A stretch of DNA of 64,000 nucleotides from Candidatus Bathyarchaeota archaeon (GCA_963733055.1 CAVTBR010000002.1:448001-512000); one strand, 5' to 3'; numbered from the stretch's first letter, positions 3,909-51,410 are shown. Notes: generated by a model from the sequence alone, not told the origin. A program made the numbers and translations.

Positions 3909-4399
3909 AGCTGGAGGATTTCGGAACATTCGTAATCTTCACCGCACTCTACGCGGCGGGTACCCTCGGCCTACCAACGTTCTCGCTGCTGGCCTATCAA
4001 GTGAAGGTGGGCGAATTACCCACTGCATTTGTTGCGATCTTCGGGTACCCTGCAATCCTAGGTCTAACTCTTGGACAGTTTATCGCAAACCTTGGGGTTG
4101 AAGCCTCCCCCGTCGCGATGATATCCCCGGCAGTCTCCTTCCTTGGTTATTTGATCGTCTACCGTTTACGCAAAGTAAGTACGCTCGCGGGTTGCGTCGC
4201 CTACATGGTACTCACTTCAGCCTGGTTGACGTACCTATTGCCCATAACTACAGGCGTATCCACGACCGAGGCCGCATACTCCGCGTTCCTTGGCCAAGCG
4301 ATCGCAGTAATGATAGGTTACGCCGCATACCTCGGAGCGAAGAGAATGAGGTCGACTCCGGGACCGACAACGACCGATCATAACGTTCAGCACCAATGA
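3905..4399 (+). CDS. QueT-like membrane transporter component
   Basis: IFTALYAA..., YQVKVGE, AILGLTLGQFIANL pattern; 5 TM. Confidence 0.6.
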   Translation: MKLEDFGTFVIFTALYAAGTLGLPTFSLLAYQVKVGELPTAFVAIFGYPAILGLTLGQFIANLGVEASPVAMISPAVSFLGYLIVYRLRKVSTLAGCVAYMVLTSAWLTYLLPITTGVSTTEAAYSAFLGQAIAVMIGYAAYLGAKRMRSTPGPTTTDHNVQHQ

Positions 4400-4444
4400 T
4401 TTTACAATCAAGGCATTGTAATCGCTTCCAACGAGGTCGGACCA

Positions 4445-5638
4445 TTGCCAGGGCCGTTAGAAGGCATACGTATACTCGACGTGTCCCGCGTTTTGACTGG
4501 CCCCTTCTGTACCATGATCCTCGGCGATCTCGGAGCCGAAGTAATCAAGATAGAAACAACAGGCGGCGGGGACGATACTAGGCAGTGGGGTCCGCCGTTT
4601 ATTGGAGGGGAGAGCGCGTATTTTCTCTCAATCAACCGCAATAAGAAAAGCCTAACCCTCGACCTCAGCAGCAATGAAGGCCGAAGCATCTTCTACGATC
4701 TCGTCGCAAAATGTGATGTAATGATCGAAAATTTTCGACCTGGCGTAACCGAAAAACTTCAGATCAATTATCCGACCATATCAAAGAAAAACCCGACCCT
4801 CATCTACTGCTCCATAACAAGTTTCGGCCCAAGGGGACCTTACAAAGACTGGCCAGCATACGATATCGTGATCCAGGGTATGGGCGGCCTGATGGGAGTA
4901 ACTGGAGAACCCGAACGGCCTCCTGTGAGAATCGGCGTTGCTATCTCGGATCTAGGCGCGGGCATGTACGCTACCATCGCTATCCTCGCAGCCTTAGCAG
5001 GTAGACAACGTACTGGGAGAGGGCAGATGGTTGATGTCTCCTTGTTGGACAGTACGGTTTCGCTGATGACCTATATGGCGGGCTACTTTTTCGCGACGGG
5101 CCAAAGCCCGAAGAGAATGGGATCCGCCCACCCAACCATCGTCCCCTATCAATGCTTCAAGACTAAGGATGGGGATTTCGTCACGGTTGCGATTGGAAAC
5201 GACAAGCTATTCCGCACTTTCTCAAAAACTATCGGTATGGAGAACTTGGCAGATGATCCGAAGTTCTCCTCCAACGCCCAAAGGGTAGCCAACAGGAATG
5301 AGCTGATTCCTCAACTGGAGCGAACGTTCTTACAGAAGACCAGGGAAGAATGGTTGCGCATCCTAACCGAAGCAAAGCTACCAGCCGGACCGGTCTACTC
5401 TATTGGAGAAATCCTTTCGGACCCTCAAATCAAGCAGAGAGAAATGCATGTCACCATTACCCACCCCAAAGCAGGTAAGATTAGCCAGATTGGAATTCCA
5501 ATGAAATTCTCCGAGACGACGCCCGAGATCCGAAACCCACCTCCCCTACTCGGACAACACACAGATGAAATCCTCAGTAAGCTGCTCGGGTACGATTCGC
5601 ACCGCATAGCGGAGTTACATGAGAAACGAATAGTGTGA
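4445..5638 (+). CDS. CaiB/BaiF family III CoA-transferase
   Basis: GPLEGIRILDVSRVLTGP, LGDLGAEVIKIE, NRNKKS, ENFRPG motifs. Confidence 0.93.
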   Translation: MPGPLEGIRILDVSRVLTGPFCTMILGDLGAEVIKIETTGGGDDTRQWGPPFIGGESAYFLSINRNKKSLTLDLSSNEGRSIFYDLVAKCDVMIENFRPGVTEKLQINYPTISKKNPTLIYCSITSFGPRGPYKDWPAYDIVIQGMGGLMGVTGEPERPPVRIGVAISDLGAGMYATIAILAALAGRQRTGRGQMVDVSLLDSTVSLMTYMAGYFFATGQSPKRMGSAHPTIVPYQCFKTKDGDFVTVAIGNDKLFRTFSKTIGMENLADDPKFSSNAQRVANRNELIPQLERTFLQKTREEWLRILTEAKLPAGPVYSIGEILSDPQIKQREMHVTITHPKAGKISQIGIPMKFSETTPEIRNPPPLLGQHTDEILSKLLGYDSHRIAELHEKRIV

Positions 5639-5642
5639 GGCG

Positions 5643-6103
5643 ATGGAAATTTTGCATCTAGAAGGAACCTATGTACTAAACTGCCCCCGAAGCGACGTGT
5701 GGAAGTTCATCTCTGACCCACAACAAATAGCCCACTGCCTTCCTGACCTCCAAAGCCTTGAGGTCAAAGATGCTAACCATTTCGTGGCCACGGTCAAGGT
5801 GGGCGTCGCGTTTGTTGCGGCACCTTCAAATTTGATTTCACGCTAATCGACCAGACACCACCATCCCATTCCTCGTTTGAAGCGGTTGGTAAGGGAGCGG
5901 GAGTATCTCTGCGGCTTAACGCAACGATGGACCTGAAGGAGATCAGCGCGGACAGCACCGAGCTCGCTTGGAAGTCTGAAGTGCAGTTAGGGGGGTTGCT
6001 TGGCGAGATTTCTCCAAGCCTAATTCAGAACAGTACAGACAAGATGACCCGCCAATTCTTTGACTGCATCAAGGCCCAACTCGAACTCCACCCTTCAGTC
6101 TGA
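5643..6103 (+). pseudogene. CoxG/SRPBCC family protein with 1-nt frameshift near 5817 (possibly an assembly error)
   Basis: N-terminal frame VWKFISDPQQIAHCLPDL...VKVGVAFV continues in the -1 frame as GTFKFDFTLIDQTPPS...FFDCIKAQLELHPSV*; colinear with intact paralog at 40522. Confidence 0.8.
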
Positions 6104-43818: not shown

Positions 43819-44673
43819 ATGGTCAAGAAATGCCCATCATGCGGCTACAACAACCGTGATGACGCATCATTCTGTTCAAGCTGCGGAGCATCTCTCGCAG
43901 GCAGCGCGGTCCCCTCACTCAAACCAGTCCCATCCGTACGCGTAGTAACCCCAGTCAGCCCCGGCGGACCTATCCGCGTGCCCGCACCAGGACAATGCTA
44001 TTATCACCCCAACCTCCCAGCAGTATACGTCTGCAACAGATGTGGAAGGTCGATTTGTCGCGATGATTCAAAAACATACATGGATCTCGTCCTCTGCCCG
44101 CAATGTTACGCAGGAGTCGTTCCAATGGTAGCACAACAACCACCCCAAGCCGCCTATGCCCAACGCCCACCCCAAATGGCGCCGGATTACGGTCCCCCGC
44201 CAATGGCTCAAGCCTATGGCCCGCCACCGATGGCACCGCCTATGGCTGCGCCAGCATTCGGTCCACCACCGATGGCTCCACCAGCAGCTGCTTACCCAGT
44301 CTATCCACCACCGCCACCAATGTTCGCCCCCGCATCACCGAGAGCACTCTGGGGCTTCATCCTATCAGTGATCGCTGGAATCCTAGTAATACTCAACGCA
44401 GCAGCTTTACTCGCACCAGGCTTCTACGCGATGTGGGTAGGTGTATTCTTCTGGTTGCCAGCACTCGGCCCTGCTAGCTTAGCATTCGCAATCGGTATAA
44501 TCATAGGGCTCATCCTGGTAATTGGGTCAATACTGATGCTGCTCGGCTACGGAACAATCGGAAGCATCGTCGTCTTCCCGTTGGCAGTGTTAAGCCTCAT
44601 AATCGGCGGAGGCTTTGTGGCCGGCTTCGTCTTAGGTGTGCTGGGCGGTATACTCGGCATGCTCGGACGGTAA
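43819..44673 (+). CDS. Zinc-ribbon + B-box-like finger + Pro-rich + multi-TM membrane protein
   Basis: CPSCG..CSSCG; CYYH..CNRC..CRDD..CPQC; GPPPMA repeats; C-terminal hydrophobic helices. Confidence 0.8.
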   Translation: MVKKCPSCGYNNRDDASFCSSCGASLAGSAVPSLKPVPSVRVVTPVSPGGPIRVPAPGQCYYHPNLPAVYVCNRCGRSICRDDSKTYMDLVLCPQCYAGVVPMVAQQPPQAAYAQRPPQMAPDYGPPPMAQAYGPPPMAPPMAAPAFGPPPMAPPAAAYPVYPPPPPMFAPASPRALWGFILSVIAGILVILNAAALLAPGFYAMWVGVFFWLPALGPASLAFAIGIIIGLILVIGSILMLLGYGTIGSIVVFPLAVLSLIIGGGFVAGFVLGVLGGILGMLGR

Positions 44674-44692
44674 GTAGCGTAGGGCACCCCCA

Positions 44693-44720
44693 ATATTTTT
44701 TTTCTTTCTCTTTCTCTAAC
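44693..44720 (+). terminator. T-rich archaeal terminator
   Basis: Long T/TC tract about 20 nt after the stop at 44673. Confidence 0.5.
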
Positions 44721-44956
44721 TTCAGTACGACGCCTAGTCGCTATTGCGCACTGGCGTGCTTCGAAGGCTGAGAAATGTATTTCTCTCCTTAATCCCCGAA
44801 GTATCGGGAGGGTTCGTTTCGTATTCGTACACCACGACGCTCGAATAAGCCCTCTGGAGCGCTCAGTCTCCATCCGACTCACCCTAACACGATGAACGCA
44901 TGAGCCATCAAGTTAACTACACTCTATAAGATTAGGAGATGAAGGGGGACCAATCC

Positions 44957-46491
44957 ATGTCCTACGTCAGCATCTCGAAACCTGTGAAGGATAGGATTGT
45001 CCAAGCTGCACGGGACACAGAGACCGAGATTATTGGGCTTCTACTCGGTAAACTCCAAGATGACACGATAATCGTCGAAGACTCGACCACCCACGAATTT
45101 TCGTCCGAACCACACCCGTCATGCTTCCGGCCAGCTCCATAGCAATCATAGCTGACCAACTCCTTACCGGACGCTTGAAGGGCAACATCGTAGGATGGTA
45201 CCACTCACACACAAGCGGAGGGCTGTTCTTTTCCGAGACCGATATTTCAACCCAAAAAAAACTACAGCAATTCTCATCCTTGATTACGGGGTTGGTGGTT
45301 GATTCAAGAAACGGGGAAGTCGGATACTTCAGAGTCATCCCAAGAACTGACAAAGCCGTTCGACTCCCTGAATCAAGCATCATAGTTTATTCTGATCCGA
45401 AAGACGCCGTCCCGCCCCCTCAAAGGACAGCGACAGTTGTAACTCCCACGCCTACTGTGGAAGTTCGAAGACACCCTCCTGCACGTCAGGTGCTGACGAG
45501 GCGTGCGGCGTTGGCGGTTATTTTGATTGTCCTAGTAATTTTGGTTGCGGGATTTGCAGGTCTGATCTACAGTTACAAGTTCGCCTCCCAAACATCAGTA
45601 GCAATCATTCATAACCCCGTCTTGGCGGGGACCATTGGAACGCCAATAACGATTTTCGCCAACACAACCGGGCTTATACATAATGTGACTTTGGTTTATG
45701 GTCCGGAAAAACAGGGTCCGATTACAGACGTGGCAATGAAGACGGTGGTTCCTGGAGAATTCAGCTACGTGATTCCAGGCAATCAGGTGGCGGGGAATAT
45801 GGCCTACTACATCAAAGCTTCCGATTCTGCGGGCAAGCAAGTTAACACTACCACTTATCACATCGTTATTTCTGATTTCAACATCCTACCACCAACCAGC
45901 TCGCTTACTGTATACAGAACCAAGTCTGCCGCCACAAACGTCCAAATAGCGTCCATCAACGATTTTACGCAACAGGTGCAACTCTCGGCAAACGGAAGCC
46001 CCAGCGGCATAACGATCGCATTCTCAAGAAACCCTGCCCCTACAGGAACAGTTAGCCTGAACGTGACCGCAAACTCGTCCACCCCCAACGGCACCTATCC
46101 AATAGCCCTGATTGCCACCTACCTACCACCTCAATCACCCCAAGTAGCAAGGCAAACGACTCTCAACGTAACCGTAGCCGACTTTGAGCTTCAAGCCTCA
46201 ACGACCAGTGTAACGGTCCCGGCCGGCTCAAAAGCGACTTTCAGCCTGAAGTTAACCCTCCAGAAGGGGTTCGTGGACCCTGTGAACATAACCCTGCTGA
46301 ACCTTCCAGAGGGAGCAAAGTACACTTTAACGGGCAACCCGACGGTTCTACCTGGAGGTCCCGGGACGGCTACCATAACGGTTCAGATAACAATACCAGC
46401 CTTTACAAAGCCGGGAACATACCCTGTCGTTGTAGAGGCAGTTGGGGGCGGGCTAGTGCACGCCTTGACTGTCGAGGTTACAGTAAGGTAG
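44957..46491 (+). CDS. JAMM/MPN+ deubiquitinase fused to TM helix and extracellular beta-sandwich domains; 1-nt frameshift near 45115
   Basis: ETEIIGLLLG (ORF 44939-45142) joins VGWYHSHTSGGLFFSETD (ORF 45121-46491) to form E..HxH-x7-S-x2-D; RRAALAVILIVLVILVAGFAGLIY TM. Confidence 0.85.
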
Positions 46492-46545
46492 TTTAGGCTC
46501 CTATATGGAGAGACAGGCAGCATGAGTGGAGGTGAACGATAGAAG

Positions 46546-46788
46546 ATGAAACTATTCATTCAAGCGCCTATCGGACCCCAGACGGGTTTGGCGGAGATCG
46601 ACGTGATCCCCGACCACACGGTTGCTGAAATCAAGCAACAGGTGTGCACCTCATTCGGCGTTGACCCGACGACGGTTGCTCTGATGTACGGAGGCGCAAT
46701 ACTAGACGAAGGCTCAACTATAGCACGATCGGGCATTCCAGAAAACGCTCAACTCGCCCTCATGCCTTACAACATAATTGGCGGGTAA
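46546..46788 (+). CDS. Ubiquitin-like modifier ending in di-glycine
   Basis: 80 aa beta-grasp pattern (TVAEIKQQV, LMYGGAILDE, SGI), ends IIGG*; GGAGGTG SD. Confidence 0.9.
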   Translation: MKLFIQAPIGPQTGLAEIDVIPDHTVAEIKQQVCTSFGVDPTTVALMYGGAILDEGSTIARSGIPENAQLALMPYNIIGG

Positions 46789-46800
46789 GGCTGAGACCGA

Positions 46801-47394
46801 TTGGACGCTACTCTGCTATACAAGGAAAAGAGCCTCCTCAACCACCAATTCCCCACGATCACAGCCCTGAACGACCCACCTACCCAGTTCGACGGATTAA
46901 TTCGATGCGAGAAAGGAGAGGTAAGACGCCTTGCTGAGAAGGGAGTATGGCCCTTCACAGAGTACGTGAACTGGAACAGATTCAAACTCGACCTGCCAAA
47001 CGAATACCCACTGAAACCTCCCGTGGCGACTTGGCTGACAGATATCTCCCACCCAAATATTGTACCGAACATTCCGAATGCAGTTTGCGTGTCCGTCCTA
47101 GGTGAAAAATGGGATCCGCGACTCAAACTGATCTCGGTCGTCAATTCACTCCACTATCTCCTCACCGACCCAAACCCACAAAGCGTCTTCGACAACCCCC
47201 GTGCCTTGAAAGCTGCCGACGTTTGCCGATCACATGGGTTCCCTAGAATGACCAAGCACAAGGCGAAGGAAGAAGTGAACGATACAGTTCATTTCAACAT
47301 AGTCCCCATACCAAGAACGCCAACCACACTCTCCCAACCCGGCGACATAGTGACCTTCTCAATCCCCAGGAGAGAAAACCGGACGCCGCGATAA
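46801..47394 (+). CDS. E2 ubiquitin-conjugating enzyme (UBC fold)
   Basis: LPNEYPLKPP..TDISHPNI..VCVSVL..WDP..LLTDPNPQS: HPN motif and catalytic Cys. Confidence 0.92.
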   Translation: MDATLLYKEKSLLNHQFPTITALNDPPTQFDGLIRCEKGEVRRLAEKGVWPFTEYVNWNRFKLDLPNEYPLKPPVATWLTDISHPNIVPNIPNAVCVSVLGEKWDPRLKLISVVNSLHYLLTDPNPQSVFDNPRALKAADVCRSHGFPRMTKHKAKEEVNDTVHFNIVPIPRTPTTLSQPGDIVTFSIPRRENRTPR

Positions 47395-48644
47395 TGAAAC
47401 TCGTTGCCTCCATCCCACGGTATAAGCAAATTGAGATCGACCTAGCCCCGACAAGAACCATCATGGAATTCAAACAGAAAGCCTGCGAGAAACTAGGTAT
47501 AGAAGCAGACCTTACAAAATGCCTGCTCCACGGTAAGCAACTGACAGAAAACTCATCCATCGCACGGCTCAAGAACGAAAAAGACCCTGTGATTCTAGAT
47601 TATCTCTGGGCACGGCAGCTTCTCGTCTGGGGCGCCGAGGGACAGCGGAAGATTCGAAACGCAACTGTACTTTTGGCGGGGGCGGGAGCGATCGGTAATG
47701 AAGCCGCGAAAAACCTCGCCATGCTTGGGGTTGGAAGAATCATAATAGTGGACCGGGACAATATCGAGCTGTCAAACGTAAGCCGAATGGTCTTCTTCCA
47801 ACCTAAAGACCTGGGCAAGAACAAAGCCGAATTCTTGGCGAAGAACCTTCATCTCACGTATCCATTCGTGACGACTACCGCCTACCGGGGCGAACTTGAA
47901 GGCATGCCGTTGAAACTCTACCTTGACTCCCAAGTTGTTCTTTGTGGTTTGGATAATGTCGTTTCACGAATCTTCCTTACGCAAACATGTCGTAAGTACT
48001 CCATTCCACTAATCGATGGGGGAATTACTGGGTTGAACGGAAGGGTTCATTCCTACCTGCCCCCCGATGACCCATGCCCAATCTGCCTCTTCCCCGCGAA
48101 CCAATACTCCAACATCGCGGGCCTACGTAACCCGTGCGAGGGGCCACTGGAACAAGAAACCGTTCCTTCTTTCGCCACCTCCATTTCCCTAGTGTCATCG
48201 ATTCTCGCGCAGGAAACAGTCAAGGTAATCCTAGGGTTAGGAGAGTACAAGTCAACTAAGAAGTGGCCTGAGAAAACTGGCCAACCGCTCAGATCAATCC
48301 TGTTCGTTGACCTGAAGAACAATCGCTACAGCACCATGGACCTCAAAAGAAGCGAACGATGCATTGTCTGCGGGAAAGACGGAACGGGAAGAACCCTGGT
48401 TCCGCGCGGTGACATGTCGCTCGATGCCCCTCCTGGTTCCAAGGCCACGGTCGAAGAATCAATCCGGAAGGTTTCCAACCTGGCCAAGGGAGAACTCACG
48501 ATTTTCGCAGAAACCTCAGAGGGTACACGGAAGATAGAGAGCAAATCGTTGCTTCGTAGCGTTGGAAAACGGGGCGATTACCTGAGAATCTTGGCGGAGG
48601 GCAAGAACAAAGAACTCCACGAATCAATACTAAGACTCACATAA
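47394..48644 (+). CDS. E1 activating enzyme (ThiF/UBA) with N-terminal Ubl-like domain
   Basis: RQLLVWG, GAGAIGNE, DRDNIELSNVSR, CPIC, NPCE (putative catalytic Cys), CIVC. Confidence 0.92.
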   Translation: MKLVASIPRYKQIEIDLAPTRTIMEFKQKACEKLGIEADLTKCLLHGKQLTENSSIARLKNEKDPVILDYLWARQLLVWGAEGQRKIRNATVLLAGAGAIGNEAAKNLAMLGVGRIIIVDRDNIELSNVSRMVFFQPKDLGKNKAEFLAKNLHLTYPFVTTTAYRGELEGMPLKLYLDSQVVLCGLDNVVSRIFLTQTCRKYSIPLIDGGITGLNGRVHSYLPPDDPCPICLFPANQYSNIAGLRNPCEGPLEQETVPSFATSISLVSSILAQETVKVILGLGEYKSTKKWPEKTGQPLRSILFVDLKNNRYSTMDLKRSERCIVCGKDGTGRTLVPRGDMSLDAPPGSKATVEESIRKVSNLAKGELTIFAETSEGTRKIESKSLLRSVGKRGDYLRILAEGKNKELHESILRLT

Positions 48645-48802
48645 CCCGAATTTTGAACTATCCATGTTAGTTTCTCGCACAACCCCTCGCACCAGGCTCC
48701 AGCAACTCCATCTTCTATGGGGAAAGCAGCCATTCAAACGTCTATTTTCAATGGGTAATCGTTAAGAACGGCCTGCAAACACTTCCTTAGTGTGTTCGGA
48801 AC

Positions 48803-49216
48803 ATGATTCCCTGTCAATCATGCGGCAGACCAAACGCTGAGGACGCGAGATTTTGTTTCAGTTGCGGCGCAGCACTTTCAAGGTTTCCACCAGTCAAGGT
48901 TGAAGTCAAATCCCCATTAACAGGCCAGACAATTCCAACTCCACGAGGCGCCCCTCCGATGTATACTCCCAGACAGATTCAGACGCCGGGAAGCTGCTAT
49001 TACCACCACGATCTACCATCAGCTTACGTTTGCACGCGGTGCGGCAGGTCGATTTGTGCAGGTTGCAACAAGCAATACGGAGTGCTAAACTTCTGCACCG
49101 AATGCTACTGGAACTTAGCCCCGAAGTTCAGTTATGGGCAGCAGCAGTATCAACAGCCCCAGCAATACCCTATGCCATACCCGCAACAAGAGCAAGGTAT
49201 GAACCCGTTCTTCTAA
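48803..49216 (+). CDS. Soluble zinc-ribbon + B-box-like finger protein (paralog of the 43819 N-terminus)
   Basis: CQSCG..CFSCG; CYYH..CTRC..CAGC..CTEC; Q/P/Y tail. Confidence 0.8.
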   Translation: MIPCQSCGRPNAEDARFCFSCGAALSRFPPVKVEVKSPLTGQTIPTPRGAPPMYTPRQIQTPGSCYYHHDLPSAYVCTRCGRSICAGCNKQYGVLNFCTECYWNLAPKFSYGQQQYQQPQQYPMPYPQQEQGMNPFF

Positions 49217-50883
49217 GCTAAACGGCCTTCTTTCTTCAAACTCTCAGTTATTTCCTTCAACTGCTCAACAGAGATGCCAAGCTCTGTTGACGCCTCGGTC
49301 ATAGATATGCTACCCTCATGTTTCACGATGTAATCATACACCCTATTCTCCGCCGAAGGCTCGACAATAGCCGCCACCGGGGTTCCGCATTTCTCGCAGA
49401 ACTCGGCTCCCCTCGCTACATTGTTACCACAACTCTTGCAAACCATGAATGGCTCTAGCATTGCCTGCCCAGTTTTTTGCGGGCGAAGTCCCGCAGCCCT
49501 GCTCTCAAGCTTACTCCTCCTGTGAACTACCACTGCAGTAACTCCAACAGCAGCAAAAGCTACGGCGCTGCCCCCAAAGAGTAGGATAAGTGGTACGTAG
49601 TCTACTGCCCATTCAGCCCGCACAACGTACGGGCCATTCACCGTTAACATCCATGAGCTCCCCGTGTTATTCAGGGTCTGAGTCGCTGGATCAACACTCC
49701 ATCCCGTAAGGGCATATGAAACGGGCCAGGTACCCGAAGAGGTTGGGGAAGTAATCGTTGCGGTCGTTCCTCGATCATACCAGCCCGACCCTGAAACTGT
49801 TCCGTAGGTCGAACGCACATCAACATAGTACTGTGTGGTGTAAGCTAGCGTCACGTTTGTCGGACCAGTGACCAAAACCGAGTAGGACAGATTCTTCGAA
49901 ACAGAGCTGTTGTAAGACCAACCCGTGAAGCGCAAGCGTTCCACTGGGCTCAGATTAATGATGGAGGGCGCTGGCCCCATTTGCACGCTAGAATTCGCAT
50001 CGTACCAACCCGCGTGCGTCTCATTGTAGGAGGAGGATACGCTCGGTGAGGAGTATGTCACGGTTAGGAGGTATTGAACGAGGTAGTTGGCGCTGACAAT
50101 TTTCGGCCGATCCATTAACACCATTCCCGAAGGTTGCTGTCCAGAAGATTCCCCGCCCCAATGATCGAACTCCAGGCGCGTATTCGATGAATTAGACGCA
50201 ACCATGCTAGCAGAAAAGTTAGCCTCCACGCCCGAATCGTACCACTCCGAACCTGCCAAGCCTGTGACGTTCGGAGGATTGGACTGTACGGTCAAGAAGA
50301 ACTGGGTCTTCCAATTTGCGACCGCTGCCTTTGGCCCATCCATGACTATCGGGTTGGACGTCAATTGGGTCCCTGTGGCGTCGCCAGACCAACCTGTGAA
50401 TATGTTCCTCGTCCCCTGGCCCTCAGCGATTTGTTGATCATTCAAAATTGCGTGCGCCGTTGAGCCAGAGTTGTACCATGCCTGGCCGGTTATTGAACTG
50501 AAGCCGCTTTCCACGGATAGGAAATATTGAGGGGTGTAGTTGAACTGATGGCTGCCTGGCGTGCTGACGCCCCACTCCGTATTATTTTCGTAATATCGTG
50601 TCCCGTTGCCGTTCCCTTGCACGTAGGCATCCACTAAGATGACGTGCGGGTTGTTGTTTGCTGAAAGAGTATACGTGGCCGAGCTCCCGCCGCTCAATGT
50701 TCCGTTAAAGCTTCCATCGACGTAGACGTGGGTTGTGAGGGAGGGCGGTAGACCCTGCACTGTGACGTTAACCGTGTAGCTGTTGTCGCCACGAACGTAA
50801 GAGGCGTTGAGAGCGATTAGGACGATGGATAAGGCAATAACCACTAGCAATCGCCCTGAAGACCCCAAAGTCAGCCGTCTCAA
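49213..50883 (-). CDS. Type I membrane protein: extracellular beta repeats, TM, cytoplasmic zinc ribbon and winged helix
   Basis: Signal peptide; repeated Q(Y/F).L.V..WY..F.GW units; TM; CKSC..CEKC; wHTH-like VYDYIVKHEGSISMTEASTELGIS. Confidence 0.75.
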   Translation of the reverse strand: MRRLTLGSSGRLLVVIALSIVLIALNASYVRGDNSYTVNVTVQGLPPSLTTHVYVDGSFNGTLSGGSSATYTLSANNNPHVILVDAYVQGNGNGTRYYENNTEWGVSTPGSHQFNYTPQYFLSVESGFSSITGQAWYNSGSTAHAILNDQQIAEGQGTRNIFTGWSGDATGTQLTSNPIVMDGPKAAVANWKTQFFLTVQSNPPNVTGLAGSEWYDSGVEANFSASMVASNSSNTRLEFDHWGGESSGQQPSGMVLMDRPKIVSANYLVQYLLTVTYSSPSVSSSYNETHAGWYDANSSVQMGPAPSIINLSPVERLRFTGWSYNSSVSKNLSYSVLVTGPTNVTLAYTTQYYVDVRSTYGTVSGSGWYDRGTTATITSPTSSGTWPVSYALTGWSVDPATQTLNNTGSSWMLTVNGPYVVRAEWAVDYVPLILLFGGSAVAFAAVGVTAVVVHRRSKLESRAAGLRPQKTGQAMLEPFMVCKSCGNNVARGAEFCEKCGTPVAAIVEPSAENRVYDYIVKHEGSISMTEASTELGISVEQLKEITESLKKEGRLA

Positions 50884-51119: not shown

Positions 51120-51410
51120 ATGACGTCCACGCCATACACGCGGGGCCGTAGCCGCGAATACCAAGTTCTAAGGAAACTCAGGGAAGAGGGATGGTACTGT
51201 AGCCGTAGTGCAGCCTCACATGGCCCCGTAGACATATTCGCAGGCCGAGCTGGAAAAATCCTCATGGTACAAGTGAAGAGCGGAAAGGGGAGAGCCACCG
51301 ATGCGGAGCGAAGTACGTTGAAGCTTTGGGGCGAAGCATACCGGGGAAGGGTAGAGATTTGGAAGTATCGAAAAGGCAAACCGCTCGAACGGGAACTGGT
51401 CTACGAATAG
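51120..51410 (+). CDS. Hjc-like Holliday junction resolvase / PD-(D/E)xK nuclease
   Basis: GRSREY..L..EGW..RSAAS..VDIFA..VQVKS. Confidence 0.75.
   Translation: MTSTPYTRGRSREYQVLRKLREEGWYCSRSAASHGPVDIFAGRAGKILMVQVKSGKGRATDAERSTLKLWGEAYRGRVEIWKYRKGKPLERELVYE

Follow-up and report, generated by a model that had tools for sequence, protein, structure and literature searches.

A ubiquitin-type conjugation gene cluster with a membrane-anchored JAMM protease and flanking B-box-type zinc fingers in an order of Bathyarchaeia

A 64,000-nucleotide stretch of the genome of a Candidatus Bathyarchaeota archaeon (GCA_963733055.1, CAVTBR010000002.1:448001-512000, hereafter the window; the genome assembly consists of 3 contigs, 2.88 Mb in total) contains, between positions 43819 and 49216, six co-directional plus-strand genes, as judged from the reading of its open reading frames (ORFs). 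These encode a zinc-finger protein (ZnF1), a JAMM-domain metalloprotease, a ubiquitin-like protein (Ubl), a ubiquitin-conjugating enzyme (E2), a ubiquitin-activating enzyme (E1) and a second zinc-finger protein (ZnF2). On balance, we favor the view that this cluster is a vertically inherited ubiquitylation system, homologous to that of the Caldiarchaeum type and probably organized for action on the cytoplasmic side of the cell membrane. Judging by sequence and structural models, it encodes a Ubl predicted to be ready to use, with GG at its end, a canonical UBC-type E2, and a membrane-tied Rpn11-like metalloprotease with a predicted cytoplasmic catalytic domain. The Ubl, E1 and E2 very likely make up a functional cascade, and the two finger proteins, which contain B-box-type modules, are candidates, and likely ones, for the ubiquitin ligases (E3s) or adaptors. 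A eukaryote-like Ubl/E1/E2/JAMM system had been proposed at this place in a first-pass annotation of the window, and the Pfam and PDB matches of the core parts support that proposal; the co-directional Ubl, E2, E1 and finger genes that it listed are indeed open frames, and the overlap of the E2 and E1 frames (TAATG) was confirmed in the sequence. The annotation did not include the N-terminal Ubl domain of the E1, a break in the JAMM reading frame, the B-box family membership of the fingers, or the gene that converges on the cluster, all described below.

The Ubl (46546-46788, plus strand) is an 80-amino-acid (aa) protein that ends with GG directly before the TAA stop codon and matches Pfam ubiquitin (1.3e-09) as well as, in the PDB, ubiquitins and the Caldiarchaeum Ubl (6fj7, 1.3e-04). 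Across 29 loci its identity is 76-99%, which makes it the best-conserved product of the cluster; the E1 reaches 41-88% and the JAMM protein 28-83%. In a survey of 46 related loci, the GG is followed by the stop in 31, and by one to five extra residues in the remaining 15; the earlier statement that the Ubl needs no maturation thus stands for the window and these 31 loci and does not extend to the other 15. Because 19 residues follow the last Arg/Lys of the Ubl, diGly proteomics with trypsin is unworkable for this modifier.

The E2 (46801-47394, plus strand) consists of a UBC core with the HPN motif and Cys96 (Pfam UQ_con, 1.9e-16) and a conserved C-terminal tail. It matches 258 E2 sequences in the PDB at E ≤ 0.001 (best 2.2e-12), with ordinary eukaryotic E2s on top, and the UBC signature that had been read in it proved robust, HPN, Cys96, W104 and DPNP being invariant in all 16 aligned orthologues. 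The tail (47270-47391, residues ~157-197), which lies outside the stretch matched by UQ_con (residues 60-135), carries the conserved hydrophobic motifs F-N-I/V-V-P-x-P and D-I/V-V-x-F.

The E1 (47394-48644, plus strand; Pfam ThiF, 4.1e-50) is, according to an AlphaFold2 model (pLDDT 86.8), composed of an N-terminal beta-grasp domain (residues 1-70), an adenylation domain (74-330) and a C-terminal beta-grasp-like domain (338-416). The first of these is a Ubl domain (PF00240, residues 10-66, 1.7e-06), and the last has no Pfam match of its own. Catalytic residues are conserved in 22 of 22 aligned sequences; the alignment and the model also reveal four invariant zinc cysteines (228/231/323/326) and an invariant Cys248 in a flexible, low-confidence loop. 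The best Foldseek match is the NEDD8 E1 UBA3 (2nvu_B, 2.1e-21 over 429 columns), against 3.6e-20 for ThiF, and single-sequence PDB searches give UBA1 (1.9e-32), ThiF (2.7e-22) and MoeB (2.7e-16), whereas the NCBIfam order is ThiF (5.9e-34), MoeB (6.9e-32) and Ube1 (6.9e-23), with every score under the cut-off. The contention that this E1 is closer to UBA enzymes than to MoeB is therefore borne out in part only, by the PDB matches and marginally by the fold, because the PDB search ranks UBA1 first and NCBIfam ranks ThiF and MoeB first.

The gene that precedes the Ubl encodes the JAMM protein. Its intact orthologues have, in this order, the catalytic Glu and the HxHx7SxxD motif, a Pro-rich stretch, basic residues, a single helix and about 300 further residues; the orthologue from locus L013 matches the Caldiarchaeum Rpn11-like protein (PDB 6fjv, 1.3e-12), CSN5 (2.6e-11) and Rpn11 (1.4e-07). 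All nine N-x-S/T sequons are located behind the membrane helix, which implies that the protease faces the cytoplasm and the remainder is outside the cell. The outside domain is beta-rich and, by weak matches to PKD, DUF5980 and fn3, Ig-like; the ESM Atlas scores for it do not exceed 0.80 and provide leads only.

In the window, the JAMM frame is broken, so that a gene described at first as encoding a JAMM domain, a transmembrane helix and an ectodomain has these domains and the helix but not a single open frame. The N-terminal piece (44957-45115, plus strand) comprises 53 codons from the ATG at 44957 and covers the region of the catalytic Glu (Pfam JAB, 0.00018); the remaining 458 codons (45115-46491, plus strand), in the frame one base back, encode the HxHx7SxxD motif, the Pro-rich linker, one helix and the outside domain of about 300 aa (JAB, 5.9e-06; Prok-JAB, 1.8e-05). 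The motif residues are present, with the frame broken between the Glu region and the His motif. The site maps to 45113-45118 (plus strand), where a G is absent behind 45116 by comparison with relatives, destroying codon 54. Because the two pieces match residues 1-53 (98% identity) and 55-512 of intact 512-aa orthologues, codon 54 alone is lost and the rest of the gene is undamaged. A DNA alignment shows the extra G in three relatives (L013, L015 and L016), and the G is also present in a related organism's contig from sequencing run X2; the near-identical run X1 covers 44830-44961 and 45351-45700 only, with the deletion site outside both. Either the assembly is in error here or the lesion is very young. 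Programmed frameshifting, also considered, was rejected in view of the extra G at the site in the three aligned relatives and the single open frame in 23 of 23 single-ORF genes of related loci that join JAMM to an outside domain. Database relatives of the protein, 352-534 aa long, are likewise single open frames in 120 of 120 cases among the matches listed. An acyl-CoA dehydrogenase gene upstream of the cluster in another assembly (L013:109-1328) gives two overlapping tblastn pieces; single-base frame breaks therefore occur in other assemblies too.

Across the 46 loci, the gene before the Ubl encodes JAMM with one helix and an outside domain in 23, JAMM with a polytopic block in five (database relatives of equal length have PF06197/DUF998 there), and a helix with an outside domain but no JAMM domain in eight; it is split into two ORFs in four loci and missing from the search result or cut by a contig end in six. 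The JAMM motif was detected in 31 of the 46 loci (23 single-helix, 5 polytopic and 3 two-ORF split forms) and, in the first 29 loci, accompanies the JAMM domain wherever that domain is present. A genome of another order (G051) has JAMM and one helix only. Membrane anchoring of the JAMM protein is thus kept while the type of anchor changes.

Two of the atypical loci deserve description. At L057, a 156-aa JAMM domain that has the motif but no helix (3966-4433) and a 403-aa protein with the helix and the outside domain (4503-5711) are separate ORFs in the same frame with a stop between them, either a natural split or a nonsense change. At L039 (3976-4797), a ZnF1-like zinc ribbon lies in frame directly 5' of the JAMM domain, a possible zinc-ribbon-JAMM fusion, and the outside domain is in a separate ORF; assembly errors are possible in this case. 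The genome that includes the window also encodes a second, soluble Rpn11-like JAMM protein (G000:C3:609541-609978, that is, L061:4541-4978) of 145 aa with an intact HxHx7SxxD motif, which shares 39% identity with the L013 catalytic domain and has the Caldiarchaeum Rpn11-like protein as its best PDB match (1.1e-10); this protein could cover the activity of the broken anchored one.

The two finger genes flank the four core genes. ZnF1 (43819-44673, plus strand) is an open frame with a Shine-Dalgarno-like AGGAGG 5' of the ATG at 43819, and its product consists of a cytoplasmic zinc ribbon (Pfam Zn_Ribbon_1, 3.4e-08), a B-box-type finger (weak zf-B_box and Prok-RING_1 matches), a 75-residue linker with 37% proline and a C-terminal multi-helix membrane block. 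ZnF2 (48803-49216, plus strand) is a soluble paralogue that consists, according to Pfam and the alignment, of the zinc ribbon and the B-box-type finger. Hydropathy analysis, with one helix in the JAMM protein and the multi-helix block in ZnF1, agrees with the earlier assignment of the deubiquitinase and one finger protein to the membrane; the paralogy of the fingers, also asserted there, is evident from tblastn cross-matches of 1e-17 to 1e-20 in relatives. In the ESM Atlas, ZnF1 retrieves two clusters of 'hypothetical protein' that are confined to Bathyarchaeota.

Both fingers have the pattern CxxC-x10-CxxC (zinc ribbon) followed by C-x2-H-x8-C-x2-C-x4-C-x2-[C/D]-x9-C-x2-C, with the ligands invariant in 33 sequences, and the eight finger ligands (C, H, C, C, C, C/D, C, C) are invariant in a 32-sequence alignment as well. 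In the AlphaFold2 model of ZnF2, both zinc modules have pLDDT of about 90 (the finger, about 92). A fold search finds the first module to resemble RanBP2-type ribbons and matches the finger to FYVE/Rim-like domains (Z 4.6), RING (Z 2.4) and B-boxes (Z 2.3; PML B-box1 and COL2 B-boxes); Foldseek with the finger model returned no match at E ≤ 0.001. Compared directly with zf-B_box (PF00643), the window fingers score 16.7 and 16.6 bits, under the Pfam gathering cut-off of 24.1. A search with the finger profile yielded 1198 clusters at E ≤ 0.001, 70 of them at E ≤ 1e-10, and PF00643 was detected (E ≤ 0.001) in 29 of 40 sampled matches, a sample chosen from 150 matches listed and made up mostly of the longer, more distant ones. 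By ligand spacing and this profile link, the fingers are assigned to the B-box family. PMC4506424, which cites Burroughs et al. 2011, links prokaryotic B-boxes to the folding, stability and proteolysis of membrane proteins; the membrane-domain fusions of the B-box relatives fit that link as far as stability and proteolysis are concerned.

The B-box module is present in four copies in the genome, two of them flanking the operon. The third paralogue (G000:C1, L059:4913-5506; 197 aa) has a B-box, a Pro-rich linker and a ZnF1-like membrane block, lacks the zinc ribbon, and adjoins genes for a 977-aa NTPase/TPR-like protein and leucyl-tRNA synthetase. The fourth (G000:C3, L060:4947-5291; 114 aa; zinc ribbon and B-box) converges on a gene for a surface protein that bears Ig-like repeats and, at its C terminus, a PGF-like anchor, just as ZnF2 and its own neighbor converge. 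Among the finger-profile matches, a 983-aa protein (P0146) has an unusual architecture in which WD40 repeats, an InlB B-repeat, a B-box of the present family and a Ser/Thr kinase domain occur together.

That neighbor of ZnF2 (49213-50883, minus strand; Pfam Flg_new_2, 5.2e-08, and Zn_Ribbon_1) converges on the cluster. The protein begins with a signal/anchor helix and continues with an outside domain of about 390 aa that carries 16 sequons, a membrane helix and a tail in the cytoplasm. The tail is made up of a zinc ribbon and a winged-helix-like segment of about 45 aa, and this segment is the best-conserved part of the protein across the order. The winged-helix matches of the segment are weak (HTH_24 in 13 of 31 sequences, HTH_PafC in 13 of 31, and RPA_C in 5 of 31 with a best value of 4.9e-06). 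We infer that this protein is a candidate substrate or partner of the ubiquitin cluster.

Of 41 near relatives, 35 yielded the E2, as did 54 of the 301 Bathyarchaeia genomes sampled; nearly all of these 54 belong to the order of the window and one to another order, and two genera of the window's own family lack the E2 (0/19 and 0/3). The gene order is highly stable: Ubl precedes E2 in all 46 loci, and E1 follows E2 in 44 (one locus reaches a contig end, and one, L038, has another gene there), with the E1 alignable from residue 1 of the window protein in all 44. In agreement with the earlier expectation that the flanking genes would be conserved with the core, ZnF1 is found upstream in 36 of the 46 loci (9 of the 10 misses have less than 2.2 kb of upstream sequence) and ZnF2 downstream of E1 in 36; the winged-helix neighbor is present in 36 as well, with most misses at contig ends. 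The more distant the relative, the lower the E2 identity (73-93% within the genus, 58-64% within the order), and the E1s of 12 loci form one clade in the E1 tree (support 97/91), which argues for vertical inheritance of the cluster within one Bathyarchaeia order. With two ThiF paralogues on very long branches as the outgroup, this tree does not settle how the Bathyarchaeia and Caldiarchaeum-type clades are placed with respect to each other. In the sister genus without the E2, five genomes retain zinc ribbons and lack the B-box module and the Ubl-E1; this co-loss is to be counted as one event rather than five. Contigs with the cluster and an E2 73-84% identical to that of the window (L014, L016, L019 and L045) are filed as bacterial metagenome-assembled genomes (Nitrospiraceae, Acidiferrales, Acidoferrum and Methylomirabilota), probably through mis-binning.

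The nearest described relative of the cluster is the Caldiarchaeum-type operon, at 28-36% identity over local BLAST alignments. In Candidatus Caldiarchaeum subterraneum, this operon has the arrangement Rpn11 | Ub-E2-E1-srfp, as given in PMC3082918, PMC5654768 and PMC6043591, and the Ubl ends with GG plus a nine-residue tail, according to PMC5654768. E2 relatives, at 1e-12 to 1e-18, occur in other families of the phylum sample (for example, in 17 of 17 and 24 of 24 genomes). The four Caldiarchaeum-type loci that we examined all encode a Ubl, an E2, a soluble JAMM protein (202-266 aa) that is divergently transcribed, and an E1 (388-399 aa) that lacks the N-terminal Ubl domain; in three of them (L092, L093 and L095), a RING-H2 ORF of 75-80 aa follows the E1, genomes G334, G327 and G425 having the RING gene and G397 lacking it. 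Genome G334, from the same phylum, has the order JAMM | Ubl with a nine-residue tail - E2 - E1 - small RING-H2 protein; local alignments with the window give 34% identity for the E2 (119 aa), 31% for the E1 (178 aa) and 28% for the Ubl (79 aa), and its JAMM protein is 36% identical to that of L013 (113 aa).

The two systems share a Ubl with a GG end, a UBC E2 with HPN and the catalytic Cys, and an E1 made of one chain that has a zinc site and, C-terminally, a Ubl-like domain, both E1s being best modeled on UBA3; an Rpn11-like JAMM protease is likewise encoded in both, in the present system as an intact frame in orthologues of the broken window gene. The JAMM gene of the present cluster runs in the same direction as the other genes and its product is tied to the membrane by an outside or polytopic module, in contrast to the divergent soluble form; the Ubl is mostly tailless rather than extended by nine residues; and the E1 has the additional N-terminal Ubl domain, such that alignments to Caldiarchaeum-type E1s begin only at residue 64-72 of the window protein. 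Instead of the RING-H2 gene after the E1, the present cluster has two flanking B-box proteins, which upholds the first-pass remark that the operon has no small RING, at least of the Caldiarchaeum kind; a genome-wide search with PF13639 (RING) found no match, but is uninformative because the control matched in no genome. The winged-helix membrane neighbor is a further difference from the Caldiarchaeum type.

Burroughs, Iyer and Aravind reportedly described, in 2011, bacterial E1-Ubl-E2-RING-JAB operons with membrane-anchored JAB proteins. These resemble the present cluster in the membrane-tethered JAB/Rpn11-like deubiquitinase and in the binuclear treble-clef fingers as presumed E3s; by their description, they are set apart as bacterial operons with Prok-RING families, whereas the present system is archaeal, vertically inherited within one order and equipped with B-box-type fingers. 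The eight-ligand cross-brace pattern is shared with eukaryotic B-boxes (TRIM proteins and plant BBX proteins) and with prokaryotic B-box membrane proteins, but the last ligand pair is Cys-Cys in the window fingers and His-His in B-boxes. In TRIM proteins, the B-box is accompanied by a RING and a coiled coil; unlike these, the window fingers have neither adjoining them. With regard to novelty, PMC4571567 already mentions, in 2015, a ubiquitin modifier system in single-cell genomes of the Miscellaneous Crenarchaeotal Group (MCG)/Bathyarchaeota. The suggestion that the system may be undescribed accordingly fails for its existence in this lineage and stands for its architecture: the text of the literature searched yielded, for Bathyarchaeia, no account of a JAMM protein anchored in the membrane, of flanking B-box genes, of a Ubl domain fused to the E1 or of the neighbor.

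Several observations weigh against a dedicated membrane-linked ubiquitylation system. In the window itself, the frame of the JAMM gene is interrupted. The membrane/outside protein lacks a JAMM domain in eight loci, and in some others the gene is missing altogether; the anchored deubiquitinase is therefore dispensable in part of the order. ZnF2 is absent from four loci and the winged-helix neighbor from three, despite about 6 kb of flanking sequence. Several of the sampled B-box proteins are fused to membrane or other domains (Rce1-like protease, LiaF, Yip1, DUF4097, DnaJ or kinases), and because the B-box is so widespread and often joined to domains outside the ubiquitin system, its presence alone does not indicate an E3. 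A comparison of the finger profile with the Caldiarchaeum-type RING protein reveals no relation (hhalign probability 3.3%), and the fold search goes no further than assigning the finger to the cross-brace zinc fingers as a whole. Finally, no RNA dataset was listed among the sequencing runs searched, and no expression data were found.

The alternative that survives best, although we regard it as unlikely, is that the Ubl/E2/E1 core serves in general cytosolic tagging, for example, in proteasome targeting as proposed for Caldiarchaeum, and that the fingers and the neighbor have no direct role as E3s or substrate. The prevalence of fusions to non-ubiquitin-system domains in the B-box superfamily, the loci without ZnF2 or the neighbor, and the soluble Rpn11-like protein elsewhere in the genome are all compatible with such tagging, as is the separation of ZnF1 and ZnF2 from the core by gaps of 283 bases (ZnF1-JAMM) and 158 bases (E1-ZnF2), which may accommodate promoters of their own. 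Against the general tagging hypothesis speak the membrane modules to which the deubiquitinase is joined in most loci, the constant position of the finger genes across the order and their absence, together with the E2, from the sister genus; furthermore, the cluster includes no other E3 candidate.

A role in antiviral defense is very improbable. In outline, the gene content (Ubl, E1, E2 and a JAB peptidase) is that of Bil and Bub, the bacterial antiviral ubiquitin-like systems (10.1101/2023.09.26.559546 and PMC11601596), or of the Cap2/Cap3 operons of the cyclic-oligonucleotide-based anti-phage signaling system (CBASS), and the E1 matches PADLOC models of CBASS E1-E2 (2.3e-16) and BilD (5.8e-08). 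These matches, however, cover just the nucleotide-binding part that such enzymes have in common and fall far short of the Pfam ThiF match, whereas the E2, the Ubl, the JAMM protein and the fingers match none of the models in PADLOC-DB, in a version that dates from 2023 and may lack those for Bub. Unlike Bil and Bub, the cluster encodes a canonical UBC E2, and it occupies one fixed chromosomal neighborhood across the order and follows species kinship, in contrast to mobile defense islands. A sulfur-carrier or SAMP/Urm1-type E1-Ubl pair, which could be read from the best NCBIfam E-values of the E1 (ThiF, MoeB and SAMP-activating E1, 5.9e-34 to 2.5e-26, below the cut-offs), is hardly credible in view of the canonical UBC E2 with invariant HPN and Cys that lies between Ubl and E1 in 44 of the 46 loci, the UBA3-like C-terminal domain of the E1, the separate ThiF-family paralogues in the genome (best 4.8e-74) and the E2-less relatives, which keep only generic ThiF/MoeB-like genes.

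Under the preferred reading, a ubiquitylation system acting at the membrane, the E1 would adenylate the Ubl, carry it as a thioester and pass it to the E2. The membrane-embedded ZnF1 and the soluble ZnF2 would stand in for a RING E3 or serve as adaptors, bringing E2~Ubl to the tails of membrane proteins, one candidate target being the cytoplasmic zinc-ribbon/winged-helix tail of the neighbor. The anchored JAMM protease would then remove the Ubl and, in relatives with a short Ubl tail, would trim that tail as well, and its outside domain may couple Ubl removal to conditions outside the cell. The substrates envisaged here, and a role in signaling or in quality control, are conjectural. A more specific, and distinctly unlikely, version is a transmembrane ubiquitin switch, in which an outside domain (the Ig-like one of the JAMM protein or that of the neighbor) senses the envelope or the surroundings, the membrane B-box protein ubiquitylates the cytoplasmic tail of the bitopic neighbor and the anchored JAMM protease reverses the modification, together setting the fate of the neighbor (release, extraction or sorting). 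Should such a switch exist, it would foreshadow, in prokaryotes, the membrane-tethered regulators under ubiquitin control and the membrane E3/deubiquitinase pairs of eukaryotes, and the B-box would gain a RING-independent E3 role.

Archaeal ubiquitin systems are the best models for the origin of eukaryotic ubiquitylation, and, to our knowledge, the soluble, RING-based Caldiarchaeum cascade is the only archaeal one that has been rebuilt at the bench so far. The version in Bathyarchaeia consists of small, separable parts and is kept throughout an order whose members are abundant in soils and sediments. It raises the questions of whether a B-box can act as an E3 without a RING, of how deubiquitinases and ligases were first tied to membranes (compare endoplasmic-reticulum-associated degradation (ERAD), MARCH-type ligases and sorting by the endosomal sorting complexes required for transport (ESCRT)), and of the role of a Ubl domain built into the E1. 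Natural variants are available for comparison: JAMM with the outside domain, with the DUF998 block, with a helix only, split or lost, and Ubl with or without a tail.

Two further features of the genome can be mentioned. Two stretches elsewhere (G000:C3:143930-144364 and 146437-146937) show weak Snf7/ESCRT-III-like matches (7.2e-04 and 1.9e-03) that are under the cut-off, as was a Sulfolobus control, a hint of an ESCRT-III-type system in the same genome. In the window itself, a 96-aa Hjc/PD-(D/E)XK-like gene (51120-51410, plus strand; Pfam Hjc, 4.8e-07) is located just past the neighbor gene, a position that it also occupies in many of the related loci.

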